Origin: Chiloscyllium plagiosum | Taxonomy: Eukaryota | Assembly (NCBI RefSeq): GCF_004010195.1 | Contig: NC_057753.1 | Location: 9,906,211 to 9,947,007, forward strand | Length of the DNA: 40,797 bases | Reading direction: 5' to 3' | In this document: in pieces, positions 2,846 through 39,865 of the stretch | Numbering within the stretch: position 1 is the stretch's first letter | Layout of the letters: each line of letters begins with the position of its first letter | Program-made: the position numbers and the translations under genes | Notes under the pieces: model-generated | What the model was told of the DNA's origin: nothing | Seen by the model: the letters and a program-made list of their open reading frames with translations, nothing else | Databases searched by the model: none

Positions 2846-2879
2846 CGAATTGAGACACAGACCTGCACCAACGTTTCCA

Positions 2880-5490: not shown

Positions 5491-5599
5491 ACCAGAGCAA
5501 TAGTGGTAGGGGAATGGATGTGGGTGGGTTACCCTTGGGAGGGTCGGTGTGGACTCGTGGGGCCGAGTGGCCTGTTCCCACATGGTGGGGATTCTCTGA

Positions 5600-5905
5600 A
5601 GGGAAGAGGTTTTTGAAAAGTGTGTTCGGCTGGAATGCAGCGCATGCGCAGTGTGGGCTCTGTTGACAGTTTTTACCCCGCCCCCTTTACCGTCACTTCG
5701 TTTGGCCTCGCCCCTCGTTTCTTTAATGACGTCACAGCGCGGACGTGGGCATGCCCATTTCAAAGTGAATCTCCCTCCCTCTGGGCTACTCTTCATCCTG
5801 GGAGGGAGACCGAGATGGGAAAATCTGTTCACTTGTAGCTATGGCCGTGAATCCAGGGAGGGAGCAGACTCCACAAACTCAAGTATTGTGACTCCTGTGA
5901 GGAGG
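5600..5905 (+). promoter_or_regulatory. CpG-rich ZNF-cassette promoter, copy 1
   Basis: NRF1-type GCGCATGCGC 5640-5649, GC box CCCCGCCCC, CRE TGACGTCA 5727-5734; paralogous to 12300-12545, 25720-25990 and 39230-39450. Confidence 0.6.
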
Positions 5906-5914
5906 AACGGGAGG

Positions 5915-7010
5915 ATAGAGTCACAGAGATGTACAGCATGGAAACAGACCCTTCGGTCCAACCCGTCCCTACCGACCGGTTATCCCAACCCAATCTAGTC
6001 CCACCTGCCAGCACACGGCCCATATCCCTCCAAACCCTTCCCATTCATATACCCATCCGAATGCCTTTTAAATGTTGCAACTGTACCAGCCTCCACTACT
6101 TTCTCTGGCAGCTCATTCCACACACGTACCACCCTCTGTGTGGAAAAAGTTGCCCCGAGGTCTCTCTTATATCTTTCCCCTCTCACCCTAAACCTATGCC
6201 CTCTAGTTCTGGACTCCTCAGCCCCAGGGAAAAGACTTTGTTTATTTATTCTATCCATGCCCCTCATGATTTTGTAAACCTCTATACGGTCACCCCTCAA
6301 CCTCTGACGCTCCAGGGAAAACAGCCCTAGTCTGTTCAGCCTCTTCCCATAGCTCAAATCCTCCAACCTTGGCAGCATCCTTGTAAATCTTTTCTGAACC
6401 CTTTCAAGTTTCACAACACCTTTCCGATAGGAAGACCAGAATTGCACACAATATTCCAACAGTGGCCTAACCAATGTCCTGTACAGCCGCAATATGACCT
6501 CCCAACTCCTGTACTCAATACTCCGACCAATAAAAGAAAGCATACCAAACACCGCCTTCACTATCCTATCTACCTATGACTCCACCTTCAAAGAGCTATG
6601 AACCTGCACTCCAAGGTCTCTTTGTTCAGCAACGCTCCCTAGGACTTTACCATTAAGTGTATAAGTCCTGCTAAGTTTTGCTTTCCCAAAATGCAGCACT
6701 TCGCATTTATCTGCCACTTCTCAGCCCATTGGCCCATCTGGTCAAGATCTTGTTGTAATCTGAGGTAACCTTCTTCGCTGTCCACTACACCTCCAATTTT
6801 GGTGTCATCTGCAAACTTACTAACTGTACCTCTTATGCTCGCATCCAAATCATTTACGTACATGACAAAAAGTAGAGGACCCAGCACCGATCCTTGTGGC
6901 ACTCCACTGGTCACAGGCCTCCAGTCTGAAAAACAACCCTCCACCACCACCCTCTGTCTTCTACCTTTGAGCCAGTTCTGTATCCAAAGGGCTAGTTCTT
7001 CCTGTATTCC
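5915..7010 (-). mobile_element. 5'-truncated CR1/HER1-like LINE
   Basis: SGVPQGSVLGPLLF, KFADDTKIGG, LVRPLLEYCVQFWS and 3' tail. Confidence 0.95.
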
Positions 7011-7304
7011 GAGAGAGGTTGGGGAGGGTTAGATACCTTTTCTGTTTTTATTTTTAAAATGTACCCGATTCCCACAAGTAAATTCAATGGGTGCAAGTAC
7101 AGCTCATGCAATATTCCTCATTGCAGCTTTACGCTGGCTTTGCATCCTCTGTTTTTCCTCAGCCTTGGCTCCAGCACATTCGGCTTCCTTCCCTCATCCC
7201 CATCCCCCCGCCCTGAGGTCCAAGCTGACCCCCAAAGTTCAGTTTATCCCTCCATTCTTTCCCGGTTGTCTTTGGTGGGTTTTGAAAACTTTCTGAATCC
7301 TCTG

Positions 7305-7865
7305 AGTATAAGAGTTGGGAAGTTATGTTGTAGCTGCACCAGACATTTGGTTAGGCCACTTTTGGAATGTTTTGTGCAGTTCTGGTCTCTCTGCTATAGG
7401 AAGGATGTTGTGAAGCTTGAAATGGTTCAGAAAAGATTGACAAGGATGTTTTCAGGGTTTGAGCTCAATAGGGTGGGGCTGTTTTCTTTTGCACGCCGGA
7501 GGCTATGGATTGACCTTACAAACTTTTATAAAATCATGAGGGACATGGATAGGGTAAATAGACAAGGTTTTTTCCCTGGGATTGGGTCATAGGTTTAGAG
7601 TGAGGGTAGGGGGGGAGATTTAAAAGGTACCTCAGGGGCAACGCCTATATTCAGAGGTTGGTGCGTGTGTGGCATGAGCTGCCAGACGAAGTCATGGAGG
7701 CTAGTACAACTACAGTATTTAAAAGGCATCTGGAGGAGTATATAAATAGGAAGGGTTTAGAGGGATATAGGCCAAGTTTTAGCAAATGGGACTAGATTGA
7801 TTTAGAATATCTGGTTGGCATGGACTGAACGGACTCTTTCTCTGCTGTGTATTTCTGTGACTCTG
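7305..7865 (+). mobile_element. CR1 LINE 3' fragment
   Basis: LVRPLLECFVQFWS..KDVVKLE remnant and tail; paralog at 26875-27330. Confidence 0.85.
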
Positions 7866-7983
7866 TCTTGCTACCAATGTTTGCCATGTCTGTATGATCA
7901 GTTTCTTTCTGGTGTTAATGCCTTGATGTTTCATTTTGCTCCCCACATCTTGGGGACATTAACCATTTCCCGTCTGGTTGTTC

Positions 7984-8522
7984 TGATGATCCAGGTTTCT
8001 GGGATTGGTCAATAAGCACACCTGGAAATGACTTTGTCAATCACACAAGCAATTGTTTATTCTTTGGTACGGCCAGGTCGGTAGACTGTGATCAGCCCAG
8101 AAGTATGAGTACTCCTCGAGTGCCATAAGAATTGGATAACTTAGAGTTTGCATAGAGCTTATGTACATTGTTTATAGTCAGGCATGGAGCATGATCACGT
8201 AGTAACAATCAATCAGATTTCCTGAGGTCCCCATGGTCTTTTGACTTAGCCTATCACGATTTCTTGTAAACAACCTGTTATTGAAATCGTATTTGTCCTG
8301 CCTGGTGGATAGGCTTAAACCGTAACTTCTGCGACTAATGGTTAGGGTCATATTGTTACTTCTGCGTTTGCAATTTTTTTCACTGGATTTACATCAGTCT
8401 GTAGTTTCTTGTTTATTCTGAGTATCAACCTGACTCAGTTCAGACCACTTTAGCCAAGCAGAAGCCATTTTGTGCAGCTCCTTCAGCCATTTTGTCCCAT
8501 TTCCCAGATGCCCACATCCTCG
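7984..8522 (-). mobile_element. ERV 3' LTR (~539 bp)
   Basis: On - strand it starts right after the PPT AAAGGGGGGAA (8533-8523) with CGAGGA (presumed TG>CG), has TATAAA (~8171-8176) and AATAAA (~8056-8061), and ends TCATCA. Confidence 0.75.
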
Positions 8523-8539
8523 TTCCCCCCTTTGATTGC

Positions 8540-10509
8540 ACCGCAATCACTGAAAGGGAAGGCTAATCCAAACAAGGTGTTCCAGCCATCAACATCCTCT
8601 AGTGTGGCACCACCATCTTCGCCGCTCACCTGGTCATTGCCATCGACACATGCGGGTAAGCCATCAAATCTATATCACTAAGGGAGCTCATATGATTCGC
8701 AATTAAACACTTAACAATAGCAATACCGGCATACAGAGGAAAATTATTCTGATATACATAGTTAAATTGATAAGCCCATTGTATCAAGAGCCCGATCCCC
8801 AGTTTCCCCAACTGGTCCCTTCAAGGAACACCTGGATCTCGTCTTGTTTCTTAGTAAAATTGCAAGTGCGATTGGGAATGCCCATAATGCATTTATGTTG
8901 GAAAGTAGCGCAGACCCCACCTTCCTGGGCTAGTCTAAGGTATGCTGATTCTGCATAGAATAAAGACGCAGATCTGATAATCCCAGACTAATCTGTTCCA
9001 GAGCCTCTTTAGTCTTATTTCCTAGAACGGTCAAGCTGCAAATGAGGTAATTGCAGTTCTTTTGACTTATCACCCCTACCGATCTTCCCAAACTCAGGGT
9101 ACTCAGGATTCCCCAGCCTATTGAGTGTCCTGGATTGTTACTCAGTCCCTTGGGATCCTTCCAGTTGGAGCAAGGTTAGCTGAGACAGCCCGCTGCATCC
9201 TCCTCAGATGAAGATACCATTGACTTGTCCACTGGTCAGGACAAGGTACTGTTGTGGGAGCAAGGGCTCTGATAGTGACTTTACGAAGAACATCTTTGCC
9301 ATTAAGGACAAGGAAATTGGTAGGTAGCTTTACCTTGACTGAAGAAATAGTAGCCAAGGTGTATAATAGGGACAATTTGTTAAAATAGGTTACTGAAATG
9401 TTACAGCAGAGGGTCTGGTCAGGTCTACAAGAGGAAAGGGCTGACGTTTTGCAAGAGGAGTCGCTTGTGCACCATAAAAAAATTGGCAAAGTGACTGTTG
9501 AGCGCTCGCACTGTATGGTAGACAAAGGTCGTCTGAATTCTGTTCCCATTAGGCTCTCCCTTAGTTCTGTTGCACATGGTCTTGGCGACAGTATCAGATT
9601 CTGAAAAGAGAAAAGACCTATAAATGCACTAGGGAAGGGTTCCGTTCCGGGTCTGTACATGGAGATGGGTATAGTTACTTTTGCTGCACAAGGCCTGTTG
9701 TACCCCAGCCAGTGGAACGCAAGCTGTTTGTATACATGGGAAGGAGGTATAAGGCCCCTTTTGTCTTACACGTGTGGGCAAGACAAGTCTCAAATAGGCG
9801 AGAGATGTTATGTGGAACATGAAGAATTATACACCCAGAGCCAGTTCCATTAAAGCAATTCTCATATGACCCTGCAGTGGAGTTAAAAGACTTCAGCAAA
9901 CACGTGGCAGGAGGGCTAACACAGTATTGGAAAGTGATATTTCTCTTTGGAGGGTCGGCAGTAGGAGGTCTGACGAATAGGTTGGGACTGGGGACAGGGC
10001 AAGTAAGTTATCTACCAATAGAGAAGAGTAACATACTACTGACTCTAGGATGAAGAACATTCTGTGGGCCTATATAAATAAGTTGTTTGTGGATTGAGGA
10101 GTTTCCCCTATCAGGCTTCTCTTTTATCGAGTAGGCCCATCCTGCAAAAAGGGATGGTGTTCCCGGGTTTCCTTCAAACATTTACCATAATAACGGGGTT
10201 GATCATTTTTATCCTCACTAGGCTTGTGTCTGCAGATAAAATCAAAAAGACAGGTTCAGTAACGACAAGGTAACTCTCACTGATTTCTACTGTCCACGTG
10301 GACCATATGTTTCTGATGTAAGAGTCCATGCAATAATCAATCACGTTCCACATGCCAAAGACGTCTGGTCCGGTGCACTGGACTACATCTCCTCGGCATA
10401 GGTGGTGGGTAATCTCGGATCGTTCCAGATCGCATCGACACTTAGTGGCTTTCCCCATCATGGTGTCGTACGTGATCAAACAGGTCAGTAGGTAGGCGAT
10501 CCCCCACAT
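8540..10509 (-). pseudogene. env: Endogenous retrovirus env (gamma-type TM), disrupted
   Basis: Signal peptide MWGIAYLLTCLI; furin-like RRMQR|AVS (~9190); fusion-peptide-like SIGWGILSTLSLG; ISD QNQHTLD..LAQEGGVCATFQHKC (~8890-8950); hydrophobic TM; several stops and frameshifts. Confidence 0.85.
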
Positions 10510-10649
10510 GTCCCTCCTCTTACTTCAGGTATCTGTAATAAGAATTGCATTAGAACAACAGCAAAATTCAAAAACCCAAATGGAGAGGATCCCTCGGTTT
10601 CCAGTATTCTCTCCTCCTCGTGCCCCTCTTGATTGGTGTGGCCAGTCAA

Positions 10650-11040: not shown

Positions 11041-11044
11041 ATCC

Positions 11045-11517
11045 GTTAGAATACAGAAATGGCTCGATACAATAAGGAAGTATTAGTCGCTATGACCGCT
11101 AGACTACAGAAGTAGCACAATAAGATAAGGAAATGTTAACCACACTGGCTGGCTCTCGGTGCAGGTGCAGTGGCACTGTATCACAAGACAAAAGTCACCT
11201 AACCATTATGACCTAAGTTGTTTAGCAGTTAATATAATTGGATCAAGTAACTAAATAGAGTGATATCATATATTGATTGGTAATTGTCTGAATATACGAT
11301 GTGATTATGACCTATGTTCTCATTTAAGAAAAGTGTACAAGTGTCTCTGTATTAAGCCATATGTGTGCAGTTGCTCTGAGGAATTTAGAAGTGCATAACT
11401 TCTGTGTTTCTCTGCGCTCTGCACCCGGCTGCATGAAGAAATAAAGAGTGAAGTCTAAAACAGCCAGACTGAATTTGAGGGTTCATTGACCAATTGCGGA
11501 ACTGAGACACCCCACCA
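11045..11517 (+). mobile_element. LTR-like element, opposite orientation to the ERV; 5' end uncertain
   Basis: AATAAA near 11440; 3' part resembles the 7984-8522 LTR (GAGGA..CATA.CTTCTG..AATAAA..ATTGACCAAT); inverted paralog at 40440-40797. Confidence 0.55.
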
Positions 11518-11681
11518 GGGGTCCAGATCTTCACTTGCAAATTCAGATATGTGTCTTAACTACCTGGGTGAGAAGGTATGGAAGGATATAGATTGGGAAG
11601 GGGATGGGGTAGATTTCTGTTTTTATTTTATCTTTTCTATCCTGGACTGACAGTGATGACCTTTGTAATCTCTTTTCACAG

Positions 11682-12095
11682 AGTACGGGGAAGAAGCCCT
11701 TCAGCTGCCCCGAATGCGGGAAGGCTTTCAGCGATTCCTCCTCCCTGTTGAAGCATCAGCGGGCCCACATGGGGGAGAGGCCTTTCAGCTCCCAGAGTGT
11801 AGGAAGGCCTTCAGCGTTTCATCCTCCCTGCTGATGCATCAGCAGGCACACACGGGGGAGAGGCCGTTCACTTGCTCAGAGTGTGAGAGGGGGTTCAGTC
11901 AGATGAGCCAACTGAAAACACAAGCAGCTCCACTCGGGGGTGGTTCAGGTGTCCCGAGTGCGGGAAGGTGTTCACTTGCTCGGTTAAGCAGCTGACCCAC
12001 AAACGGATCCACACAGGGGAGTGGTCATTTACCAGCTTTCAGTTTGAGAAGGCCTCATACGCTACTCCCACGTGTAGAGGCTCCAGTTCACATAG
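11682..12095 (+). pseudogene. C2H2 zinc-finger pseudogene A
   Basis: Acceptor TTTTCACAG|A at 11681, then [24 protein letters not shown] and [16 protein letters not shown] with frameshifts and stops; ATG region deleted. Confidence 0.85.
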
Positions 12096-12104
12096 GGTCA
12101 AGTG

Positions 12105-12298
12105 TTGTGCAGGTTAGGGTGGATTGGCCATGCTAAATTACCCATAGTGCACAGGAATGTGCAAGTTAGGTGTATTAGTCAGGGGTAAATGTAGAGCACT
12201 AGGGGTAGGGGAATAGGTGTGGGTGGGTAACCCTTCGGAAGGTCAGTGTGGACTCGTTAGGCCGAATGGCATTGCTCCACACTGTGGGGATTCTCTGA
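12105..12298 (+). mobile_element. HE1-like SINE 3' half
   Basis: GTGCAGGTTAGGGTGGATTGGCCATGCTAAATT...GGCCGAATGGC tail. Confidence 0.8.
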
Positions 12299-12299
12299 A

Positions 12300-12545
12300 G
12301 GTAAAGGATTTTTGGAAACTGTACAGGGCAGTGCAGGCCAGGCCAGGCCAGTGGCCGCTGGCCGTTCGGAGCAAGCGCAGTCCGGCAGCATGTTTTGGGC
12401 CTCGCTCCATTGATGACGTCACAATGTGGAAGTGTCCCTGTCAAGTTTGAGTGGAACTGCCTCCCTCTGGGCAACTCTTCATCCTGGGAGGGAGAGGGTC
12501 GGACCAGGGGGAGGAAGCGAAATCAATTTTTATTTAAGGTGGGTG
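12300..12545 (+). promoter_or_regulatory. ZNF-cassette promoter, copy 2
   Basis: CpG-rich, CRE TGACGTCA 12414-12421, shared CCTCCCTCTGGGCAACTCTTCATCCTGGGAGGG. Confidence 0.55.
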
Positions 12546-15350: not shown

Positions 15351-15369
15351 GATAGATGTAAGAAGTGCG

Positions 15370-16430
15370 GTAAAGAGAAGCCAGGGACCTATAGATCGGT
15401 GAGCCTGACCTCAGTGGTGGGCAAGTTGTTGGAGGGAATCCTGAGGGAAAGGAGGTACATGTATTTGGAAAGGTAAGGACTGATTCACAATAGTCAACAT
15501 GGCTTTGTGCATGGGAAATCATGTCTCACAAACTTGATTGAGTTTTTTGAAGATGTAACAAAGAAGATTGATGAGGCCAGAGCAGTAGATGTGATTTATA
15601 TGGACTTCAGTAAGGCGTTTGACAAGGTTCCCCATGGGAGACTGATTAGCAAGGTTAGATCTCATGGACTACAGAGAGAACTAGCCATTTGGATACAGAA
15701 CTGGCTCAAAGGTAGAAGACAGAGGATGGTGGTGGAGGGTTGTTTTTCAGACTGGAGGCCTGTGATCAGTGGAGTGCCACANNNNNNNNNNNNNNNNNNN
15801 NNNNNNNNNNNNNNNNNNNNNNNNNNNNNNNNNNNNNNNNNNNNNNNNNNNNNNNNNNNNNNNNNNNNNNNNNNNNNNNNNNNNNNNNNNNNNNNNNNNN
15901 NNNNNNNNNNNNNNNNNNNNNNNNNNNNNNNNNNNNNNNNNNNNNNNNNNNNNNNNNNNNNNNNNNNNNNNNNNNNNNNNNNNNNNNNNNNNNNNNNNNN
16001 NNNNNNNNNNNNNNNNNNNNNNNNNNNNNNNNNNNNNNNNNNNNGCTGTTTTCTCTGGAGCGTCAGAGGCTGAGGGGTGACCTTGTAGAGGTTTACAAAA
16101 TTATGAGGGGCATGGATAGGATAAATAGACAAAGTCTTTTCCCTGGGGTCGGGGAGTCCAGAACTAGAGGGCATAGGTCTCTTTTATATCTTTTCCCTCT
16201 CACCCTAAACCTAAGGGGCAACTTTTTCACGCAGAGGGTGGTAAGTGTATGGAATGAGCTGCCAGAGGATGTGGTGGAAGCTGGTACAATTGCAACATTT
16301 AAGAGGCATCTGGATGGGTATATGAATAGGAAGGGTTTGGAGGGATGTGGGCTGGGTGCTGGCAGGTAGGACTAGATTGGGTTGGGATATCTGGGTCTGT
16401 TTCCATGCTGTACATCTCTATGACTCTATC
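15370..16430 (+). mobile_element. CR1/HER1-like LINE (RT to tail, spans an N gap)
   Basis: GKSCLTNLIEFFE..VDVIYMDFSKAFDKVPH and 3' tail. Confidence 0.93.
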
Positions 16431-16775
16431 TATTGGTTTTGAAACTTCCATCTTCAGATCTTCAAATAATCAGTAAAAAGAGATCAAAAGGCATCACTGT
16501 CAGTGCAGGGTAGAAATTCAGAACAAGCAAATCTATTTTCTGTGGAAAATTTTCTTTTGTCATTTCACAAAATTGAAAGCACCATCCCACTTTCTCTCCC
16601 TCTGCTCTAACTAATTCTTACAGGGACAGAAAAGCAAACATGTCAAGAATGACATCTCTGCATTTTTGATAACTCCACCTGAAAGTTAATATCTTTCACA
16701 ACATTGGGATACTGCTGAGTGAGCAGGTCTGATTTTGGGAAGCAAAAAAAACCCAATGAATTTGCAACAACCCTT
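16431..16775 (-). pseudogene. Orphan ZNF-cassette intron and small non-coding exon (16678-16622); finger exon missing
   Basis: Paralog of 21360-21720 and the reverse complement of 34050-34425; TTTCAG|GTGGAG acceptor and GTAAG donor. Confidence 0.7.
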
Positions 16776-16777
16776 TC

Positions 16778-16965
16778 CCTTCAGAGAATCGCCACAGTAT
16801 GGAAGCAGGCCACTCGACCCAACGAGTCCACACCGACCCTCCGAAGGGTAACCCCCCCACACCCATTGCCCTACCCCTATTGCTCCACATTTCCCTCTAA
16901 CTAAAGCACCTAACCTGTACATCCCTGGGCACTGTGGATAAGTTAGCACTGTCAATCCATCCCAA
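16778..16965 (-). mobile_element. HE1-like SINE 3' half
   Basis: Reverse complement of the SINE tail seen at 5491-5600. Confidence 0.75.
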
Positions 16966-16969
16966 TCCG

Positions 16970-17440: not shown

Positions 17441-17605
17441 GCATGAGAGGAAAAAAAAGTATATTTCTGTGCTGTATATTAAAAGACAGTGAGGGTAAAA
17501 AGCACAAGCCCCAGTAAAAGCAGATGGAAAGTGAGTGTAAAATTTCAATATGACAGGACAGGCCCCACATTCCTTCCCCTCCGTCCCCCCCACAACCTGC
17601 CTCAC

Positions 17606-17858
17606 CTTTCACCTCCCGGGCCCAGTACCTTCCAGGTGGCCCCATAGTTGACACAGGGGCCGCCCCACGACCAGTAGAACTCCACCACCCAGGCGGCCGA
17701 CGAGTTCCCAAGCAGGCCCTTAACCCCGTCCGCCTTCAAAATGGTCACCGGCTCCTGTACAGGCGGCCGGTGTGGCCGTGACACAGCAGTTGCGCCAGGA
17801 AGGCGGCGGTGAGGGGTGTTTGCCCCGGCCGCACGGCGCCGCTTCCCCGCACGAGCAA
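17606..17858 (-). pseudogene. QSOX2: Isolated QSOX-family (QSOX2-like) exon 1: signal peptide and start of the thioredoxin domain, disabled
   Basis: ..AAFLAQLLCHGHTGRLY/EPVTILKADGVKGLLGNSSAAWVVEFYWSWGGPCVNYGATWKVL/AREVK then G|GTGAGG donor. Resembles recalled QSOX2 ARLY..[33 protein letters not shown]. Two frameshifts, WCGHC>WGGPC, no ATG. Confidence 0.8.
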
Positions 17859-17960
17859 CTTCTCCTCACAACCACCTCAACGCCACGTGACGTCAGTTCG
17901 GGGGGGGGGGGGGGAGATGGGCGGGGCCGGGGGAGCCTCACCGTCACCAAACAACAGCCA
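17859..17960 (-). promoter_or_regulatory. CpG promoter of the QSOX-like exon
   Basis: GCCACGTGACGTCA (17882-17895; overlapping CRE and CCACGT/E-box), GC box GGGCGGGG 17919-17926. Confidence 0.6.
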
Positions 17961-18409
17961 CCTCGCGCTACAACTGCTCATTCACAAAAACAAACTGTCT
18001 TGTTTCGCTCCACAACTGCAGGGGGGACTCTGCCACGTTTCGAGGAGCCCTGTCCGCATTGTGAAAACTCACAGCTCAATTTAGAGATATTCCTTTAAAC
18101 TGTCATCTCCAAATGGGGAAATTAGCATCTTAAAAGGGATTTTAATGGACATTTTAATGGGCTATTACTACAAAGAGATTTAAATGGACAAGATAGATTA
18201 TATTTCAAAGGGATGTGGGCACATTCAAAGGTGTATCTTAATATCTAAATAAATGTACATTTCGAAGAGATGCTACCCTATTTACAAACAGAAATATCCC
18301 TTTGAGACAAGAGGTGTGAATTATGTCTGTATCCCAATGTTGAGTCAGACTGACATTTTTCTTAGAAAAGTTCTGCATTTAAATTACATTGTTGAGAAGT
18401 TAATTGATA

Positions 18410-19110: not shown

Positions 19111-19659
19111 TCTAGTGAACATAGCCCACACCTCCCGGTGCTGCCATTAACCTTTACAATGCAGATGAAACGACACAGTCTGCACTCCTGAAAAATTTAC
19201 AATGTCTAACGATACGAGCTACTCATTCACTGCTCCTTCTGATACACGACATTGGAAACTTAGTGCAGGAGGCTGAAAGAAATGAGCAGCTTTAAAACAA
19301 AAACCTCTTGGAGTTCAAAGCCTTCAGTGAGAGCCTGAGTCCAGCAGAAAGTTCAGGTAACCTTTATTGTGAACCAACTTTGTTAGAGCTTCCGATCCCC
19401 CCACCAAAGAGGCACACAAAAAGTAGCTGGTTTTTAAACAGCTGAAGGTCAAAGTGCACACGCTTCCCCACCATCTCACTTTCTTTACTATTGGTTAGCA
19501 CTGACTTGTTCTGTTGTAAATGGATCCTTGGTACAGCCTTAACCCGGAGGAAGTATTGCCTCACTCAGCAATTTCAACCCATACCCTGTATCCAAGTAAG
19601 TTTCTCCCCACTCATTTGCCAGGGGTGGGGGCAGGATGGTTTGGCAGGGGGGTGGGAAA

Positions 19660-19960
19660 GACAGTATAGAGTCAACCACACTGCTGTGGGTCTGGAGTCA
19701 CATGTAGGCCAGACAGGGTAAAGGATGCAGCTGGGATGACTGAGAATCCTTTGCCACAACTGCATTTTCCTTTCCTAAAAAGGATGTGAGTGAATCAGAT
19801 GGGGTTTTTTGCCCCTGCCACACCACCAAAAATGGTTTCACTGTTAAGATTCTGAACTCCCGATTTCTGACTGAATTCTATTTCCACCATATGCCACAGC
19901 AGGATTCAAACCCGGTCGTCGCTGGAACTGGGTTGATATCCAGTTGATATTGGCACTCTG
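19660..19960 (-). mobile_element. Deu-domain (SacSINE1-like) SINE remnant in the ZNF 3'UTR
   Basis: Reverse strand GGGTTTGAATCC..TGGCATATGGTGGAA and TCTGGCCTACATGTGACTCCAGACCCACAGC; paralog at 35430-35685 (+). Confidence 0.6.
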
Positions 19961-19971
19961 CCCTCACTCCT

Positions 19972-20993
19972 TCAATCCCGTTGCAGTGGTACATGAACTC
20001 GCTGGTGCCTCCGCAGGTTGGAGAGCGGGTGAAGCCCTTCCTGCATTCAGGGCAGCTGAAGGGCCTCTCCCCAGTGTGGATCTGCCAGTGCATCAACAGG
20101 TTGGATGCCTGGGTAAAGCCCCTCCCACATTCTGGACAGCTGTAGGGCCTCTGCCCCGTGTGGACCCGCCGGTGGGGAAGTAGGTGGGAGGCCCGGGTAA
20201 AGCCCTTCCTGCACTTGGGGCACTGAAAGGCCTCTTCCCCCGTATGGACCTGTTGGTGCCTCAGTAGTACGGAGGAATTGCTGCTCCACCAGTCAATCAT
20301 GAACTCACTGGTGCCTCCGCAGATGGGAGGAGCGGGTGAAGGCCTTCCCACACTTGGGCAGCTGAAGGCTCTCTCCCCAGTATGGACCTGCCGGTGCTTC
20401 ACCAGGGCAGAGGAATTTCTGAAGGCGTACCCACATTTGGAACAGCTAACAGGCCTCTCCCCCCGTGTGGACATGCTGGTGCTTCAGCAAGTCAGAAAAA
20501 TAGTTGAAGGCCTTCCCGCACTCAGGGCAACTGAAGGGCTTCTCCCCAGTATGGATCCGCCGTTGCGTGCGCAGGTTGCTCACCTGACTGAATCCCTTCC
20601 CACACTCGGGGCACAAGAATGGCATTTCTTCAGTGTGGATCTGCCGGTGGGTCAGCAGGATGGATGCCTGGGTAAAACACTTCCCACACACGGGGCAGCT
20701 GAAGAGCCTCTCCCCTGTGTGGACTCGCCGGTGCTTCAGCAGAATGGAGGAATTGCTGAAGATCTTCCTGCACTCAGTGCAGGGGATCGGTCTCTCCCCT
20801 GTGTGGACCTGCTGGTGGGTCTGCAGGGCGGATGAATTGCTGAAGGCCTTCCCGCACACAGGGCAGGAGAACGGCCTCTCCCCGGTGTGACTGCGCAATG
20901 AATCTCCAGGGCAGACTGAGCACAGAAGCCTTTTCCACAGTTGCCACACTTCCACGGTTTCTCCACAGGGCGGGATTCCTCAGGTTTCTCCAT
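19972..20993 (-). pseudogene. C2H2 zinc-finger pseudogene B (about 11-12 fingers, no KRAB)
   Basis: MEKPEESRPVEKPWKCGNCGKGF then tandem [14 protein letters not shown] fingers split over several frames; acceptor at 21399-21400, upstream exon 21649-21592, AATAAA 19368-19363. Confidence 0.9.
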
Positions 20994-21894
20994 GGCTGTA
21001 GATTCAGCCGCACACAACGTGTAGAGCCCCTCCACATCGTGAATTCCTCTTTCCAGCCTGTATAACTGTTTCAGGCTCCACACTCAGTACACTGCAACAG
21101 TAGGGTCTCTCATCCAGTCCCACTGATGCTGAAAATGTATTCAAACAGGAACCAAAAAGCTTTGCTCCTTCTCACAGAATCATATTTGAAAATTGTTGCG
21201 GTCCTGATGGATTGAGTGACTGTCAGACGTTGACGTCAAAATGAGGACTCCAGGCACTGCAGAGTCAGAGTCGAGAAATGTGGCACTGGAAAAGCACGGT
21301 AGGTCAGGTAGCATCCAAGGAGCAGAAGATTCAATGTTTCGGGCATAAGTCCCTCATCTGTTGATTTTGAAACTTCTGTCTTCAGATCGTCAAATACTCT
21401 GTAAAGAGAGATTACAAACGTCATCACTGTCAGTCCAGGGTAGAAATTCAGAACAAACAATTCCACTTTCTGTGGAATATTCTTTTCTTTTGTTATTCCA
21501 CAAAATTGAAAGCACCATCCCACTCTCTCACCCCCTCTGTTCTCACTCCGCTCTAACTAATTTTCCTGAAGGTGCTGATTCAGGATCTTACAGGGCAGGA
21601 AAGTAAAAACGTCTAGAATGACGTCCCTCTGAATTTTGGATAACTCCACCTGAAAGTTAATATCTTTCACAACACAGTGATACTGCTGAGAGTGAGCGGG
21701 TCTGATTTTGGGAAGCAAAAGAAAAGGGTGCGTCAATGCAATGCAGTTTCTTGAGGAACAACCAGAAATGAAATGGTTAACGTCCCCAGGGAAAAATGGG
21801 GGCAGGGGGAATGAGGTGGAGACACCAAGGCATTTACACCAACACTAGAGAGAAACTAAACATACAGACGTGACAAACATTGTTGGAAAGCCAG

Positions 21895-25230: not shown

Positions 25231-25548
25231 ACGGTGTCTCAGTGGTTAGCACTGCCACCTCATGGCACCAGGGACCTGGGTTCGATTCCAGTCTCGGGGC
25301 GACTGTCTGTGTGGATATTGCACATTCTCCTACTGATGTCTGAGGCGGGTTTCCTTCCGGTGCGCCTGTTTCCTCCCACAATCCATAGATGTGCAGGTTC
25401 AGGCTAGATTCTCCATAGTGTCGAGGATGTGTAGGTTAGGTGCATTAATTAGGTGTAAATGTAGGGGAATGGGTCTGTGTGGGTTACCCTTCAGAGGGTC
25501 GGTGTTGACTTATTGGGCCAAGTGGCCTGTATCCACACCGTCAGGATT
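25231..25548 (+). mobile_element. HE1-like SINE
   Basis: CAGTGGTTAGCACTGCC..GGGTTCGATTCC, core and tail. Confidence 0.85.
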
Positions 25549-25719
25549 CAATGAAGGGTAGGGATTTTTGCAAACTATGATTTCTTCCTGTTCTGCTGCA
25601 GGGGCAGCACAGGGACGTCGATTTCGAAGTTCCTTGGATGCTGCCTGAACTGCTGTGCTCTTCCAGCACCACTAATCCAGAATCTGGTTTCCAGCATCTG
25701 CAGTCTTTGTTTTTAACCA

Positions 25720-25990
25720 CAGTGCGGTCGAGCCGACCTAGCGCCCGATATCCGTATCGCCCCATTGTGACGTCACAATGCGGATTTGGCCCTGTCAGTT
25801 TCAGAGTGAATCTCCCTCCCTCTGGGCAACTCCTCCCCCCCCCCCCAGGATGAGAGAAAGAGAGAGAGGCGGGGGTGGGGGGGGGGGGTTTGGTGGGGGA
25901 ATCTGTTCACTTGTATCAACTGGAGTGAATCCAGGGAGGGGGCAGACTCTGCAAACTTAATTACCCAGTTGAGGAGGGACGGAAGGAAGG
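25720..25990 (+). promoter_or_regulatory. ZNF-cassette promoter, copy 3 (Penelope fragment at 25615-25718 just upstream)
   Basis: Perfect 18-bp palindrome CATTGTGACGTCACAATG 25763-25780; shared GTGAATCTCCCTCCCTCTGGGC. Confidence 0.55.
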
Positions 25991-26006
25991 GGGAAAGGGA
26001 GATTGA

Positions 26007-26583
26007 TGTGGGATATAAATGAATTAATGTTATTTCTGCAAGTATAAATTCTGATACAGAATGGGAATGAGAAAATACATATTCAGCAAAAAGAAAGCAT
26101 GAGACGTGATTACAGAACAATGGTGGATATATGGGCAAACAGGAAAGCATCTGTTTCCCCTCCTCAAGACACAGGAACTAACCCTAATCAAAGAGGTCAA
26201 AGTGGCCTCTGGATGGAAATAGATGCTGATAGAAGAAAAGATATGCCTAATCAATAACCTATAATAGACTGACGTCAAACACCCTTATGGGAGTCAGAGA
26301 TAAGAGTTTGTCACGGACAAAACAGGATAAACAGAAGTTGTGGGATAAGTCTTAAGGAAATGAGTGACGTAAGCGAAGCAGGGAACAAACAATGGAATAA
26401 GGAAAAATATGGGGATTCAAACTGAATAAATTTCGAGAGTTTGTTGGATTTGGTGTGCATTTTGTCATTACCTTACCTGGTAATGAGACAGGGCACCCAC
26501 CTATAGGTGTATAAATAAATGGCGGATTCAGATATTTGTCTCGGACTGAAATTATTAAAGTGAGTGAGCTTTTGTTTCTCACA
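26007..26583 (+). mobile_element. Solo LTR (577 bp) with 4-bp TSD
   Basis: TGTGGGA...TCTCACA termini; TTGA on both sides (26003-26006, 26584-26587); TATAAA near 26509 and ATTAAA near 26554. Confidence 0.8.
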
Positions 26584-26874
26584 TTGAGAAGGGAGAAATA
26601 TCTTATTTTTAAAATGCATCTGATTCCCACAAATGCAACAGGTACAAGTACAGCACATGCAATATTCCTCATTGCAGTTTCAAACGGCTGCAATGGTTTT
26701 GCACCTTCTGTTCTTCCTCCACCTTAGCTCCAGCGCATTTGGCTTCCTTCCCCTATCCCCATCCCTGGCCCGACTCTTTGATGCTTCCAAGCTGACCCTC
26801 AAAAGTTCAGTTTGTCTCTCCATTCTTTCCCATTGTCTTTTGTGGGTTTTGAAATCTTTCCCAATCCTCTGATT

Positions 26875-27330
26875 GAGTCTCGGACTTGGGAGTTTATGTT
26901 GTGGCTGTACAGGACATTGTTCGGCCACTTTTGGAATATTGTGTGCAATTCTGGTCTCCCTGCTATTGGAAGGACGTTGTGAAACTTGAAAGAGTTCAGA
27001 AAAGATTTACAACGATGTTGCCAGGGTTTGAGCTAAATAGGTTGGGGCTGTTTTTCATAGTGAGCCAGAGGCTCAGGGGTGACCTTGTGGACGTTTATAA
27101 AATCATGAGAGGCATTGATAAGGGAAATAGTCAAGTCTTTTACTGGGATGGGGAGTCCAGATCTAGAGGGTAATAGATTAGGATGAGTGGGGGAAAATAC
27201 TTAAATGGTACCTCAGGGGCAGCTTTTTCATGCAGAGGGTGGTTGTATAAGGAATGAGCTGTCAGAGGTAGCGGTGGATGCTGATATAATAATGATATCT
27301 AAAAAGCATCTGAATGGGTGTAGGAAGGGT
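26875..27330 (+). mobile_element. CR1 3' fragment
   Basis: VRPLLEYCVQFWSPCYWKDVVKLERVQKRF. Confidence 0.88.
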
Positions 27331-27331
27331 T

Positions 27332-28320
27332 GAGTGTGGGGGAAGGGATTTATCCGCTCCTCCCAACTCTTAGACCACTGACGGGTCCACACCGGGGAGA
27401 GGCCCTTCCCCTGCTCTGAACGCAGGAAGGGCTTCAGCAGTTCCTCCTCCCTGCTAACACACCAGCGGATCCACACCGGAGAGAGACCATTCACCTGCCC
27501 TGAGTGTGGGAAGGGCTTAACTCAGCCCTCCCAACTGCTGACACACCAGCGGGTCCACACTGGGGAGATGCCATTCGCCTGCCCAGTGTGTGGGAAGGGC
27601 TTTGCGGTCTCTTCCAAACTCCTGGCCCACCGGCAGGTCCACACACGGGAGAGGCCCTTCAGTGGTTAGCACTGCTGCCTCACAGCGCCAGAGACCCGGG
27701 TTCAATTCCCTCAGGCGACTGACTGTGTGGAGTTTACACGTTCTCCCTGTGTCTGCGTAGGTTTCCTCCGGGTGCTCCGGTTTCCTCCCACAGTCCAAAG
27801 ATGTGTAGGTCAGGTGAATTGGCCATGCTAAATTGCCCGTAGTGTTAGGTAAGTGGTAAATGTAGGGGTATGGGTGGGTTACGCTTCGGCGGGTCGGTGT
27901 GGACTTGTTGGGCCGAAGGGCTTGTTTCCACACTGTAATGTAATGTAAATGTAATCTGTCCAGAGTACAGGAAGGCCTTCAGCTATTCCTCCCACCTGCT
28001 GAGGCGCCAGCAGGTCCACACTGGGGAGAAGCCGTTCTCCTGCCCAGCGTGCGAGAAATGCTTTAACCGCTCCTCCCACCTACTGACCCACCGGCGGGTC
28101 CACATGGGGCAGGACAACGGCCACTCCCCTGAGTGCAGGAAGGGCTTCAGCAATTCTTCCGCTCTGCTGACCTAAGGGCGGGTCCATACAGGGGAGAGAC
28201 CATTTAGCTGCACCGCTTGTGGTAAGAGATTCACATTTTCCAGCAACTTGCGAAGACGCCAGCGGGGGGCACCAGTGCTCCCAACAATCAGATTCCACCA
28301 GTGACGCTACTGTGGACTAA
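27332..28320 (+). pseudogene. C2H2 zinc-finger pseudogene C, 5'-deleted and SINE-interrupted
   Basis: [26 protein letters not shown] and HTGEKPFSCPACEKCF fingers with stops; SINE at 27660-27957. Confidence 0.88.
27660..27957 (+). mobile_element. Young HE1-like SINE inserted in ZNF C
   Basis: Closely similar to the 5177-5490 copy; (TGTAA)n tail; splits PFS|CPE codons. Confidence 0.9.
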
Positions 28321-32996: not shown

Positions 32997-34768
32997 NNNN
33001 NNNNNNNNNNNNNNNNNNNNNNNNNNNNNNNNNNNNNNNNNNNNNNNNNNNNNNNNNNNNNNNNNNNNNNNNNNNNNNNNNNNNNNNNNNNNNNNNNNNN
33101 NNNNNNNNNNNNNNNNNNNNNNNNNNNNNNNNNNNNNNNNNNNNNNNNNNNNNNNNNNNNNNNNNNNNNNNNNNNNNNNNNNNNNNNNNNNNNNNNNNNN
33201 NNNNNNNNNNNNNNNNNNNNNNNNNNNNNNNNNNNNNNNNNNNNNNNNNNNNNNNNNNNNNNNNNNNNNNNNNNNNNNNNNNNNNNNNNNNNNNNNNNNN
33301 NNNNNNNNNNNNNNNNNNNNNNNNNNNNNNNNNNNNNNNNNNNNNNNNNNNNNNNNNNNNNNNNNNNNNNNNNNNNNNNNNNNNNNNNNNNNNNNNNNNN
33401 NNNNNNNNNNNNNNNNNNNNNNNNNNNNNNNNNNNNNNNNNNNNNNNNNNNNNNNNNNNNNNNNNNNNNNNNNNNNNNNNNNNNNNNNNNNNNNNNNNNN
33501 NNNNNNNNNNNNNNNNNNNNNNNNNNNNNNNNNNNNNNNNNNNNNNNNNNNNNNNNNNNNNNNNNNNNNNNNNNNNNNNNNNNNNNNNNNNNNNNNNNNN
33601 NNNNNNNNNNNNNNNNNNNNNNNNNNNNNNNNNNNNNNNNNNNNNNNNNNNNNNNNNNNNNNNNNNNNNNNNNNNNNNNNNNNNNNNNNNNNNNNNNNNN
33701 NNNNNNNNNNNNNNNNNNNNNNNNNNNNNNNNNNNNNNNNNNNNNNNNNNNNNNNNNNNNNNNNNNNNNNNNNNNNNNNNNNNNNNNNNNNNNNNNNNNN
33801 NNNNNNNNNNNNNNNNNNNNNNNNNNNNNNNNNNNNNNNNNNNNNNNNNNNNNNNNNNNNNNNNNNNNNNNNNNNNNNNNNNNNNNNNNNNNNNNNNNNN
33901 NNNNNNNNNNNNNNNNNNNNNNNNNNNNNNNNNNNNNNNNNNNNNNNNNNNNNNNNNNNNNGTGAAATGGGTGTGGCTTTGGAGGGTCGGTGTGGACGTG
34001 TTGGGCTGAGTGGCCTCTTCCATACTGTGGGGATTGTCTGAAGGGAAGGGGTTATTGCAAACTCATTGTTTTTTTTTTGCTTCCAAAAATCAGACCTGCT
34101 CACTCTCAGCAGTATCCCAATGTTGTGAAAGATATTAACTTTCAGGTGGAGGTATCCAAGATGTAGAGAGCTGTTTTTGCTTTTCTGCCCTTGTAAGATC
34201 CTGAATCAGCACCTTCAGGAGAATTAGTTAGAGCGAAGTAAGAACAGAGGGGGAGAGAGGCTGGGATGGTGCTTCAATTTTGTGAAATAACAAAAGAAAA
34301 GAATATTCCACAGAAAGTAGAATTGCTTGTTCTGAATTCCTACCATGTACTACCAGTGATGACTTTTGTGATCTCTTTTTACTGATTATTTGAAGATCTG
34401 AAGATGGAAGTTTCAAAATTAACAGATCGATCTCCTGCTCCTCGGATGCTGCCTGACCGTCTGTGCTTTTCCAGCGCCGGACTTTCCTACACTGACTATC
34501 CAGTAACCGCTGTCCTCACTTTGACGTCAATGTCTGACAGTCACTCAATCCATCAGGACCAGCACGATTTTTGACTGTGATTCTGTGAGAAGGAGCAAAA
34601 CTTTTTGGTTCCTATTTGAGTGCGTTTTCAGCATCAGTGGGATTGGATGAGAGACCCGCCTTTGCAGCGCACTGAGCATGGAGCCTGAAACAGCTATACG
34701 GCCTGGAAAGAGGAATTCATAGCAGGGAGGGACTCTATATGTGTTTGTCTGCAGCTGAAGGGTTGGCC

Positions 34769-35408
34769 ATGGAGAAACCGGAGGAATTCTGCCCCATGGA
34801 GAAACCATGGAAGTGTGGCAACTGTGGGAAAGGCTTTTATGCCCCGTCTGACCTTGAGACTCATTGGCAGTCACACCAGGGAGAGGCCCTCCACTGCCCA
34901 GAGTGCGGGAAGACCTTTACCCAGGCCTCCCACCTGCTGACCCACCGGCACTTCCACACGGGCGAGAGGCCATCCAGCTGCCCCCAGTGCGGGAAGGCCT
35001 TCAGTAATTCCTCCGCCCTGTTGATCCACCGGTGGATCCACACAGGCGAAAGGCCCTTCAGCTGCCCTGAGTGTGGCCACAGTCGCCACACTTCCATGGG
35101 TTCTCCATGGGGCAGAATTCCTCCGGTTTCTCCATGACCAAACCTTCAGGGAAGGCCTTCAGTTATTCCACTCCCTGGTGTGACTGCCAATGAGTCTCAA
35201 GGTCAGACGGGACATAAAAGCCTTTCCCACAGTCGCCCCACTTCCATGGTTTCTCCATGGGCCAGAATTCCTCCGGTTTCTCCATGGCCAAACCTGAGTG
35301 AGGGAAGGCCTTCAGTTATTCCTCTGCCCTGCTGAGGTACTGACAGGTTCAGTGCGGGAAGGGCTTTACCCACTCCTTCCACCTGCAGAGCCATTGCAGG
35401 AGGTTTGA
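34769..35408 (+). pseudogene. C2H2 zinc-finger pseudogene D with inverted templated insertions
   Basis: [52 protein letters not shown]; upstream exon 34146-34192; acceptor mutated to TG at 34383-34384; AATAAA 35920-35925. Confidence 0.88.
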
Positions 35409-36189
35409 AGGAGCGACGGCCGAGTGCCATTATCGACTAGACTATCAACCCAGTTCCGGGGACTCCCAGGTTTGAATTTCACCGTGGCAGATGGCGGAAT
35501 TGGAAATCAGTCAGAAATCTAGAGTTCAGAATCTAACGATGAAACCATTTTTTGGGGAGTGGGGGTGGAGAAATCCCTATCTGATTCACTCACTTCCTTT
35601 TTAGGGAAAAGATTCACTCAGTCGTCCCAGCTGCATCCTTTATCCGGTCTGGCCTGCACGTGACTCCAGACCCACAGCCATGAAAATCTTAGTTGGAGAC
35701 AGGGTATAGGTTGAAATTGCTGCGTGAGGCAATACTTCCTATGGGTTCAGGCTGTACCAAGGATCCAATTACAAAGGGACAACTCAGTGCTGACCAATAG
35801 TAAAGAAAGGCAGGGGGATGGGAGTGTGTGGGCTTTGACCTTGAGCTGTTTTTTAGAAAAGCTACTTTTTGTACACTTGTTTGCTGGGAGGATCTGAAGC
35901 TGTAACAAGGTTGGGTCACAATAAAGGTTACCTGAACTTACCCTGGGCTCAGGCTCTCATTGAAGGCTTTGAGCTTCAAGAGGTTTTTGTTTTAAAGCTG
36001 CTCATTTCTTTCAGCCTTCTGCACTAAGTTTCCAATGTTGTGTATCAGATGGAGCAGTGAATGAGGAGCTAGTATCGTTAGAAATTGTAAATTTTTCACG
36101 ACTGTAGGTACGACGTCGTTTCATCAGCATTGTAAAGTTTACTGGCAGTACTGGGAGGTGTGGGCTGTGTTAATGAGAAACTATATGGA

Positions 36190-37840: not shown

Positions 37841-37954
37841 ATAATGACCCCCCCCCCCATGAATCAAACTGATTCTATTTCCAAAGTAGGAATTCATAAA
37901 ATATTACATGGATTGACTGCCTGCAGATTGTGCACTTTTTGAGCAAAATTCAGG

Positions 37955-38620
37955 GACATAATTCTTTGAAAGTTGCATCACTGGTAGGCAGGGTGGTTAA
38001 GAGGTGTTTCGCATGCTTGCTTTCATTGTTCACACTGTCATGGATCGGCGTTGGGACATCATGTTGAGATTGTCTAGGATGTTGGTGAGGCCACTTTGAG
38101 TACTGAGTACATTTCTGGTTGCCCTGTTGTAGGAAGATTATTATTAAAGGGCATTTGGACAAGATTTACCAGGATGTTACCAGGACTGGTGGGTATGAGT
38201 TAGAAGGAGAGGCTGGAACGTTTTTCACTGGAGCATAGGAGATTTAGGGGTGACCTTACTGAGATTTATAAAATCATGAGGGGAGGAGGGAAGGTGAATA
38301 GCAAAGGGCTCTTCCTTTATGTAGGGGAACTCAAAACAAATGGCAATTTCTTTAAGGCGAGAGCAAAGAGATTTAAAGAGAGCCTGAGGGGCAGTGACTC
38401 AGAGGGTGGTTTGTTTGGGGAATGAACTTGCTGAGGAAGTGGGAGATGCAGGTACAGTTACGATGTTTAAAAGACATTTGGATGGGTTCATGAATAGAAA
38501 GATTGAGGGGGATATGGGCCAAATGCAGGCAAGTGGGACTGGTTTAGTTTGGGAATCCTGGTCGACATGGACCAGTTGGACTGAAGGGTCTGTTTCTGTG
38601 CTGTATGCCTCTATGACTCT
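37955..38620 (+). mobile_element. CR1 3' fragment
   Basis: TQRVVCLGNELAEEV..FKRHLD and tail. Confidence 0.82.
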
Positions 38621-38719
38621 AAGAACCAGAAGTCATCTTATTGAAACCAGTAAGATTTTGAAAGGGGCTTAACGGGGTACACACAGATAAAATGCTCCGT
38701 TGTGGGGGTAAGTTATAGA

Positions 38720-39120
38720 CAATGTGGACGCAGTCCATTGAGTCCACCCCACCCATACCCACCCCCTACCCTGTATTTCCCATGGCGAATCCACCTTAAC
38801 CTGCAGGTCCCTGAACACTATGGATAATTTAGCAAGTCCAGTCCATCCTATCCTGGACAAAGTTAAAAACCACACAACACCAGGTTATCGTCCGACAGGT
38901 TTATTTGGATGCATTCATGTTCAGAGCACTGCTCCTTCAGCAGTGGTTGTGGCGAATAAGATCACGATCACAAAATGTATAGGCAAATGAGTCCAGTGTC
39001 ATGGAGTTGTCATACACGAAACAATTTTAGATTAAATCTTTTAGAATCGGTTTCTGTTCCTTGGAATGTTAATCCCAGAACTCCTGTTAAATATCAAATC
39101 TCAAGAATGTAATTTAAAGG
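38720..39120 (-). mobile_element. SINE tail plus Penelope-derived pLTR fragment
   Basis: Same SINE-to-AAAA.CACACAACACCAGGTT arrangement as 16860-17060. Confidence 0.65.
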
Positions 39121-39229
39121 CAGAGCTTTTCTTCATTGTATGAAAAGGTTGCCCCTTGGTATATCTTTCCCCTCTCTCCTGAAACGTCTGCCGTCTGATT
39201 CTGGATTCGCCCCACCCGTCCACCTTAAA

Positions 39230-39450
39230 CAAAAATTGATTTCGCCCTCTCCTCCCTCTCCCCCTCCCAGGATGAAGAGCTGCCCAGAGGGAGGGAGTTC
39301 CACTCAAACCTGACAGGGACACTTTCGCCTTGTGACATCATCAATGGAGTGAGGCCCAAAAACATGCTGCCGCACTGCACTTACTCCGGACGGCCGCTTG
39401 CATGCACTGCGCCAGTGCTGCCCTGTACAGTTTCCAAAAATCCTTTCCCT
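39230..39450 (-). promoter_or_regulatory. ZNF-cassette promoter, copy 4
   Basis: Reverse complement of 12300-12545; CRE altered to TGACATCA at 39333-39340. Confidence 0.5.
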
Positions 39451-39539
39451 TCAGCGAGGCCATTCGGCCTAACGAGTCCACGTCCACGCCCACTCTCCAA
39501 AGGGTAACCCACCCACACCTACTCCCCCACCCCTAGTGC

Positions 39540-39865
39540 TCTACAAATCCCTTCCCACACTCTGTGCAGCTGAAGGGCCTCTCCCCTGTGTGGACCCGCT
39601 GATTCTTCAGCAGGGTGGAGGAATAGCTGAAGGTCTTCCTGCACTCTGGGCAGCTGAAGGGCCTCTCCCCCATGTGACCCACTGGTGGGTCAGTAGGTTG
39701 CAGGCCCGGGTAAAGCTCTTCCCGCACTCGGTGCAAGGGAACGGCCTCTCCCCGGTGTGACTGTGCCGATCAGTATCCAGGACACAAGGGAAACGGAAGC
39801 TTTTCCCCGCAGTCGCCACACTTCCACGGTTTCTCCACGGGACGGGAGTCCTTGGGTTTCTCCAT
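39540..39865 (-). pseudogene. C2H2 zinc-finger pseudogene E, 3'-truncated
   Basis: [52 protein letters not shown] with frameshifts; acceptor at 40272-40273; fused to a SINE tail. Confidence 0.88.

Follow-up and report, generated by a model that had tools for sequence, protein, structure and literature searches.

Six SINE junctions among damaged zinc-finger gene copies in Chiloscyllium plagiosum: a probable trace of cluster duplication

Results

Layout of the locus

We analysed a stretch of 40,797 nucleotides of Chiloscyllium plagiosum (contig NC_057753.1), hereafter the window. It holds five C2H2 zinc-finger (ZNF) arrays, B, D, E, F and G, all of which are disrupted. It also holds six copies of a junction in which a SINE tail is followed by a 23-nt flank (Table 1).

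Table 1. Gene copies and associated elements in the window
Feature	Position	Strand	Parts and remarks
Upstream context common to A and C	4618..5119; C 16909-17395	+ / -	5'-truncated SINE abutting an old repeat fragment, with an identical join in both; 72% over 528 nt
Younger SINE	5182-5491	-	Separates copy A tail from its upstream part
Copy A, SINE 3' tail and flank	5494..5619	+	Flank 5597-5619
P1, GC-rich promoter-like block	5620..5915	+	TGACGTCA at 5727; homologues in B, F, G; putative promoter
Copy A, intron-like stretch	5914..7983	+	LINE fragments; 7048-7760 common to G, 7355-7983 common to region upstream of D
LTR-like element before array B	11160..11681	+	With exon-end remnant and 135-nt intron; paralogous to 40797-40272 (-); LTR-like by anatomy
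ZNF array B	11682..12060	+	Lacks 5' UTR and MEKP start; ~4-5 finger remnants, frameshifts
Copy B	12105..12495	+	Truncated SINE, flank 12296-12318, P1 (TGACGTCA 12414); behind array B, no ZNF downstream
Copy C	16425..16965	-	Truncated SINE, flank 16783-16761, putative 50-nt exon 16728-16679, 208-nt intron; TG in place of the acceptor AG; truncated by LINE at 16425
P2, CpG island upstream of C	17500..18100	-	TGACGTCA at 17888; single copy in window
Gene D (no junction)	19118..21749	-	Putative 52-nt exon 21701-21650, acceptor 21399, 5' UTR, ATG 20993; ~12-13 finger remnants, several frameshifts, a stop; high-copy repeat in 3' UTR; AATAAA 19368-19363
Copy G	25231..26010	+	Near full-length SINE, flank 25552-25574, ~110-nt repeat insertion, P1 (TGACGTCA 25768)
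G, intron and array	26603..28264	+	LINE-bearing intron fused directly to ZNF array G (27331-28264); stops, young SINE insertion 27660-27948
Copy E	33962..36171	+	SINE tail beside N gap, flank 34039-34061, putative exon 34094-34145, loss of acceptor AG shared with C; ATG 34769, 122-aa ORF with 3 fingers, inverted duplication 35077-35334; 3' UTR paralogous to D's, AATAAA 35920
Copy F	38994..39545	-	Short SINE tail, flank 39453-39431, P1; behind array F, no ZNF downstream
Gene F	39546..40797	-	LTR-like element, 140-nt intron 40411-40272, 5' UTR, ATG 39865; finger 1 frameshifted, array truncated after ~4 fingers

The junction and what follows it

The junction occurs at 5589 (+), 12288 (+), 16791 (-), 25544 (+), 34031 (+) and 39461 (-), confirming the six recurrences reported in a first-pass annotation. 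A flank pattern built from these copies themselves matched six times in the window and nowhere in 100 dinucleotide shuffles. With a tail profile made from four junction-less SINE tails of the window, 15 matches were found. The flank was present at 6 and absent from 9, namely the four profile seeds, a fifth SINE-like tail and four short hits at LINE 3' ends. Among the longer SINE-tail matches in the window, 6/11 carried it. This SINE and LINE may be the HE1 V-SINE and HER1 LINE, a pair in which the SINE has a tRNA-like head and shares its 3' tail with the LINE. HE1 and HER1 are tabulated for sharks and rays (PMC3747384). The junction pattern had no match in metagenome contigs, which are uninformative for vertebrate DNA.

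In copies A, B, F and G the junction is followed by P1, a GC-rich block that is homologous among the four and contains the TGACGTCA motif (with one mismatch in F). In C and E it is followed by a module with a putative small exon. This alternative had been described earlier as a CpG promoter or a small-exon module, and it stands, with P1 as a presumptive promoter. A further P1-like fragment lies at 2873-2906 (-), with no junction adjoining it in the sequenced part.

Two of the six junctions run on into a ZNF array, and those of A, B, C and F reach none. In B and F the junction is placed immediately behind the array. D is the longest array in the window, yet it has no junction.

Among A, B, C and F, pairwise identity of the SINE tails is 82-88%, compared with 68-78% to the four junction-less tails. 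Tail identity to the other junction copies is 68-77% for G and 66-77% for E, no higher than that of unrelated tails. A weakly supported tree of the tails resolves only B with F and two young SINEs. The case for a single origin that includes G and E is therefore made from the flank and the downstream homology. We also considered whether the flank is a target-site duplication inside ZNF coding sequence, since it looks like the GKGF codons of a finger. This candidate was rejected, as the sequence that follows is not ZNF coding.

Duplication of the copies as DNA

Homology extends past the junction for 0.1-3.4 kb. Identity is 78-87% between B and F (11160-14589 vs 40797-36191), 78-86% between D and E (19118-21725 vs 36171-34070), 81% between C and E, 72% between the upstream parts of A and C, and 71-76% among the introns of A, G and D. 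The copies are old (~8-29% diverged), G being the most divergent. Because the homology includes introns and old repeats, the copies were duplicated as DNA; the paralogy spans introns, flanks and shared old insertions, as expected of segmental duplication. Processed retrocopies were rejected, since introns and promoter-like blocks are retained. These comparisons agree with the earlier proposal of DNA-level amplification rather than retrocopying and, at the sequence level, support a ZNF family, apparently without KRAB, that duplicates and turns over by birth and death.

A short direct repeat stands at both ends of the block that is missing in C and E (AAACT; GAAACTG in B, F and D). One deletion at this repeat best explains why the junction leads either to the promoter-like block or to the small exon, and by parsimony the event in C and E would be a deletion rather than an insertion. 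Both C and E have lost the acceptor AG, so the template of at least one duplication was probably a gene that was damaged beforehand.

Damage and selection in the arrays

Starts of the form MEKP..EKPWKC are present in D, E and F, and a MEKP start is absent from B and G. Reading from the MEKP ATG yields 85 aa in D and 31 aa in F, with no complete finger in either, and 122 aa with three fingers in E, where the ORF survives through compensating frameshifts. B and G contain frameshifts or stops. No copy in the window has the intact multi-finger reading frame of a functional member. The "complete parts list" of the first-pass annotation is a composite: no single copy has all of its parts, and every array is damaged. 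In related contigs there is one additional base at each of 20897, 20354 and 20022, near the frameshifts of D.

Between paralogous window copies, dN amounts to 0.14-0.17, much as in non-coding sequence, where divergence (p) is 0.08-0.18. dS (0.27-0.61) exceeds dN with a ratio of 0.26-0.51, measured on 27-73 codons. This excess could reflect past purifying selection, or CpG decay together with mis-paired fingers.

Read evidence for the gene structure

All read evidence comes from relatives or paralogues, the best DNA run sharing only 0.24 of the window's words, and the RNA runs are RNA by guess, none being recorded as such. The putative small exon measures 50-52 nt (47-58 nt in the first-pass annotation), and the next intron 208-251 nt rather than the ~190 nt given previously. 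Read depth over the small exon in RNA is at intron level: the RNA/DNA ratio (X1) is 0.005-0.008 in small-exon bins, 0.006 in intron 2 and 0.27-0.64 in the main exon. No splice joint across the small exon is among the 15 joints listed (778 further joints lie beyond these). The six junctions and shared modules of the earlier description hold up; its complete cassette and intron size do not.

In a relative's DNA run (X14), depth is 155 at the join between junction and module (16760) and 12,608 inside the module (16716), so that the join is, by this rough measure, ~80-fold shallower. In the relative's DNA contigs, depth is high over the intron module, over the main exon and at the 3' end. P2 is deep both there and in one RNA-guess run, and is a candidate first exon of the ZNF family.

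A very high-copy repeat (~19660-19840) lies in the 3' region common to D and E and is followed by AATAAA (19368-19363, -), bearing out the earlier report of a repeat-bearing 3' UTR before AATAAA. The repeat may be a Deu-SINE (SacSINE1-like), a type defined by its Deu core domain. Behind AATAAA, 775 reads end loosely in poly(T) at 19349, a distance of 14 nt. The reads of this run come mostly from paralogues, since 94% of matched reads are less than 95% alike. In a relative's poly(A) run, 798 reads depart from the window at 16794, where the SINE tail ends. An RNA-guess contig differs from the 3' region of D at 6 positions in 330 nt, and D or E may retain some expression. RNA of relatives supports the main exon and poly(A) site of the family, and not the small exon. 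At other sites in the genome, members of the wider ZNF family seem to be transcribed and to receive poly(A) tails.

Family identity

Copies D, E and F have a first finger of the form EK[PL]WKC..CGKGF..PS.LE.H with a linked C2H2 array. This places them in the EKPWKC-type elasmobranch ZNF expansion. The first-finger motif occurs in 10/264 proteins compared, and all eight whose names were checked are elasmobranch. These proteins share with the window copies a first finger, (M)EKPWKC, directly before a TGERPF-linked array. They include RefSeq models named zinc finger protein 850/721/91/420-like from Heterodontus francisci (XP_067869942.1, XP_067910341.1), Carcharodon carcharias (XP_041031536.1) and Amblyraja radiata. 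Several models contain 2-4 such starts, which suggests that annotation has merged tandem genes. The window copies differ from these proteins in being disrupted throughout and in having a longer start, MEKPEESRPVEKPWKC, which is absent from the 264 proteins compared. Two protein searches with the N-terminus only gave no match, and a full protein scan without a profile was dominated by long generic arrays.

Neither KRAB nor SCAN was present among the precomputed Pfam domains of six elasmobranch matches (among 120 listed), and the 25 top-ranking Pfam families for the D array and the E ORF do not include KRAB. The 5' UTR region upstream of the arrays has stops in every frame. KRAB is reported as enriched among families missing in cartilaginous fishes (PMC8455134).

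Discussion

We consider the window to be a damaged piece of a tandem elasmobranch C2H2 ZNF cluster, with the junction most likely representing one old SINE insertion passively copied with its flank by segmental duplication. In this history, a SINE would have inserted upstream of P1 in one gene. The unit of SINE, junction, P1, LINE-bearing intron, acceptor, single coding exon and 3' UTR would then have been duplicated in tandem and in inversion, and the copies trimmed by deletions. A deletion at the short direct repeat likely removed P1 and its intron from the C/E type, and another likely fused one array to the SINE of the next unit in the B/F type. An old repeat carried along in cluster duplication and later trimmed is the most likely source of six junctions among five damaged ZNF copies, and is ordinary for such clusters. 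The junction itself is likely a passive marker, of a local sub-lineage rather than of the whole ZNF family.

An alternative along the lines of the first-pass annotation takes the junction as the mark of a founding cassette of a functional ZNF family, amplified genome-wide as promoter, small exon, coding exon and 3' UTR. All six junctions do lie inside a ZNF-rich 41-kb window and lead into shared modules. A relative's DNA contigs also show high depth at the 3' end, over the main exon and over the intron module, and the poly(A) site is in use. However, D lacks the junction, four of the six junctions (A, B, C and F) reach no array, the join falls roughly 80-fold below module depth in X14, and the small exon has RNA/DNA ratios like intron 2, far under the main exon (X1). 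Moreover, the CpG island with family-level depth is P2, a different one. We therefore regard the founding cassette as improbable; DNA duplication and birth-and-death of apparently KRAB-less ZNFs are what we keep from that interpretation.

The flank could also be the 3' end of a SINE subfamily, for example by read-through to a T-run terminator, in which case at least two independent insertions in the cluster were later multiplied by duplications. A T-rich run does end the flank, the flank sits on 6/11 of the longer tail matches in the window, the G and E tails stand apart from those of A, B, C and F, and upstream contexts vary between copies. We find this account quite improbable: homology passes the T-run into P1 in four copies, G among them, and also reaches a motif found at the intron end of D, and SINE reads of relatives depart before the flank. 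We judge it very improbable that the C/E form is ancestral and that the P1-intron block (~2.4 kb) is a mobile piece inserted behind the junction with a 5-7-nt target-site duplication. The identical short motif at either end of the block, and the extra P1-like fragment with no adjoining junction in the sequenced part, would fit such an insertion, but inspecting the block ends by eye revealed neither coding capacity nor terminal inverted repeats. G, the most divergent copy, has the block, and the derived acceptor loss shared by C and E fits a late deletion.

Passive copying with segmental duplication has parallels in young mouse KRAB-ZFP clusters, where earlier-inserted transposons were multiplied in this way (Bruno et al. 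2025, PMC12575710). Many pseudogenes and fragments are reported from these clusters, and recombination at microhomologies has been proposed (PMC12575710; Kauzlaric et al. 2017, PMC5363842). Unlike them, the window has no KRAB exon that we could see, its marker is a SINE rather than an ERV, and its copies are old. The lineage-specific tandem expansions that Wells et al. (2023, PMC10547256) describe from across the metazoans, including cyprinid FiNZ-ZNFs, likewise consist of clustered, fast-turnover KRAB-less arrays, although FiNZ-ZNFs carry an N-terminal accessory domain, FiNZ, and no such domain was found in the window. The supplement of that study lists 475-3586 ZNF ORFs per genome for eight chondrichthyan assemblies; sharks go unmentioned in its main text, where selection and TE repression are tested in fish only. 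An independent chondrichthyan analogue of KRAB-ZNF clusters is plausible and is not new as fact, the expansions being tabulated and members annotated in RefSeq.

Although this large family has been counted (Wells et al. 2023) and annotated automatically (RefSeq), none of the papers listed in our literature searches dealt specifically with its gene structure or function. The window offers a small, clear example of a ZNF cluster duplicating and decaying, with the junction as a usable marker for ordering the duplications. Whether an effector-less family silences transposons is a question worth asking of intact genes, which the window lacks. More speculatively, and we think this rather unlikely, sharks and rays might run a genome defence of hundreds to thousands of expressed ZNFs lacking KRAB, SCAN and FiNZ, in which the first finger may recruit a repressor and SINEs serve as break points that shuffle promoters and arrays. 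If so, the window would hold the remains of one dead sub-lineage, for which the junction would be a ready phylogenetic marker.

Identity of the junction

The junction, a SINE tail joined to a 23-nt flank, is a real marker, most likely of one local and for the most part dead sub-lineage within a zinc finger (ZNF) family. A fuzzy search of the window recovered all six copies (A, B, C, E, F and G) at the positions reported by the first-pass annotation, which had taken the junction to mark an amplified, KRAB-less ZNF cassette. The flank alone gave six matches in the window versus none in 100 shuffles; since its pattern was derived from the same six copies, this comparison indicates non-randomness, not independent discovery. 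The flank is unlikely to belong to a general SINE consensus, because it is present at 6 of the 15 tail matches that a profile from four other SINE tails found in the window, other SINE tails end in unrelated sequence when aligned, and 798 reads in a relative's poly(A) run depart from the window at 16794, where the tail ends immediately before the flank. Within the limits of the tail profile, the alignment and the relative's reads, the junction withstands the first refutation proposed by the first-pass annotation, namely that it is simply SINE consensus.

Organization of the duplicated blocks

Self-comparison revealed that the window consists of rearranged paralogous blocks. The GC-rich promoter-like block P1 directly continues the junction in A, B, F and G, and an intron module continues it in C and E; the same module occurs in D, a ZNF gene without a junction. 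DNA upstream of D matches a LINE-plus-flank stretch of A's intron, part of which is common to G. Because these overlaps join up, we infer one ancestral unit that would have comprised the SINE, the junction, P1, a LINE-bearing intron, the module, an acceptor, a single long exon and the 3' UTR. P1 and the intron are absent from C and E. One deletion could account for this, a reading that fits the short direct repeat bordering the absent block. Loss of the acceptor AG is common to C and E, and A and C have the same repeat upstream and a SINE truncated at the same point. B and F form an inverted duplication (~3.4-4.6 kb), and in both a truncated array adjoins the next unit's SINE. Only in G and E does an array lie downstream of the junction.

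Reads from relatives

All reads came from relatives or paralogues, and the best run shares just 0.24 with the window. Four runs were aligned to 16400-21800 at 80% likeness, which pools paralogues; depth does not equal copy number. Poly(T) is present in 775 reads at 19349, which lies 14 nt beyond D's AATAAA, so the ZNF family uses this 3' end. RNA/DNA depth ratios in run X1 support the acceptor before the main exon and not the putative small exon of the module, because they were 0.27-0.64 over the main exon versus 0.005-0.008 in the two small-exon bins (intron 2, 0.006). A 50-nt exon that has diverged may, however, be hard to align. These bins were lowest in runs X4 and X16 as well. The first-pass annotation correctly read DNA-level duplication; its complete parts list is a composite that includes one unsupported part.

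DNA depth was 12,608 within the module versus 155 at the junction-module join. P2, a CpG island upstream of C (17500-18100, minus strand) that is single copy in the window, showed module-like depth; it is deep in a relative's DNA contigs and in one run presumed to be RNA. It was rich in RNA in X1, whereas X4 and X16 gave no clear enrichment. P2 may normally provide the first exon of ZNF family genes.

Coding state of the arrays

Mapping of half-fingers, based on 98 fingers from five elasmobranch proteins, showed that each of the five arrays contains frameshifts or stops. Reading from the MEKP start, D encodes 85 aa and F 31 aa, neither with a complete finger, and E encodes 122 aa with three. 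The E array is broken after these fingers by a local inverted duplication (35077-35334) that copies the start region of E itself and is 94-95% identical to 34755-34886. Amino-acid-changing divergence (0.14-0.17) was near non-coding divergence (0.08-0.18), and synonymous divergence was higher (0.27-0.61), over just 27-73 codons per pair. These figures are compatible with earlier selection or with none. The window data have no bearing on TE silencing either way.

Family membership

The wider ZNF family is already counted and annotated. The first finger resembles that of annotated elasmobranch proteins: its EK[PL]WKC motif occurs in 4 of the 120 protein matches listed, all elasmobranch, and in 10 of 264 proteins after a widened search; at least eight of these are from Heterodontus, Carcharodon and Amblyraja. 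Neither KRAB nor SCAN was among the precomputed Pfam domains of the six elasmobranch matches among the 120 listed. According to both PMC8455134 and PMC11603059, cartilaginous fishes lack KRAB-ZNFs. Wells et al. 2023 (PMC10547256) report that ZNFs have expanded throughout the metazoans, irrespective of the accessory domain. The supplement of that study gives 475-3586 ORFs for eight chondrichthyan assemblies, and three sharks have 136-444 ORFs on one sequence per species; its main text does not discuss sharks.

Repeats and other elements

Repeats and other elements in the window
Feature	Position	Strand	Remarks
Degraded endogenous-retrovirus-like stretch	7990-11100	-	Broken envelope-like frames; interrupts unit A
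LTR-like element with AATAAA	11160-11520; 40440-40797	+; -	At expected promoter site of genes B and F
L1/Tx1-like LINE	30360-32986		Endonuclease (PF03372) and zf-RVT (PF13966) matches
Further P1/exon-1 motif fragment	2873-3204	-	Preceded by CCAAT-like boxes; adjoins assembly gap
Two young SINEs	5182-5474; 27660-27948	-; +	92% identical
~120-nt repeat in 5' UTR of D, E, F	21238-21358; 34431-34522; 40110-40217		
Other ~120-nt repeat copies	825-962; 15136-15259; 28674-28881		Palindromic at 28674-28846

Ahead of its envelope-like frames, the retrovirus-like stretch carries a putative integrase-end-like motif; three open frames there had no match in Pfam. SINEs in the window are putatively HE1 and DeuSINE, names that PMC3747384 tabulates for sharks. 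The minus-strand young SINE lies within A's old SINE and the plus-strand copy within ZNF array G. The 3' end of the LINE forms an inverted pair (30360-31159, 87%). The LTR-like element was duplicated along with genes B and F (82%), and the ~120-nt repeat was inserted before the D/E/F duplication, because it is present in the 5' UTR of all three. In mouse KZFP clusters, too, segmental duplication is reported to have passively multiplied transposon copies that were already in place (Bruno et al. 2025).
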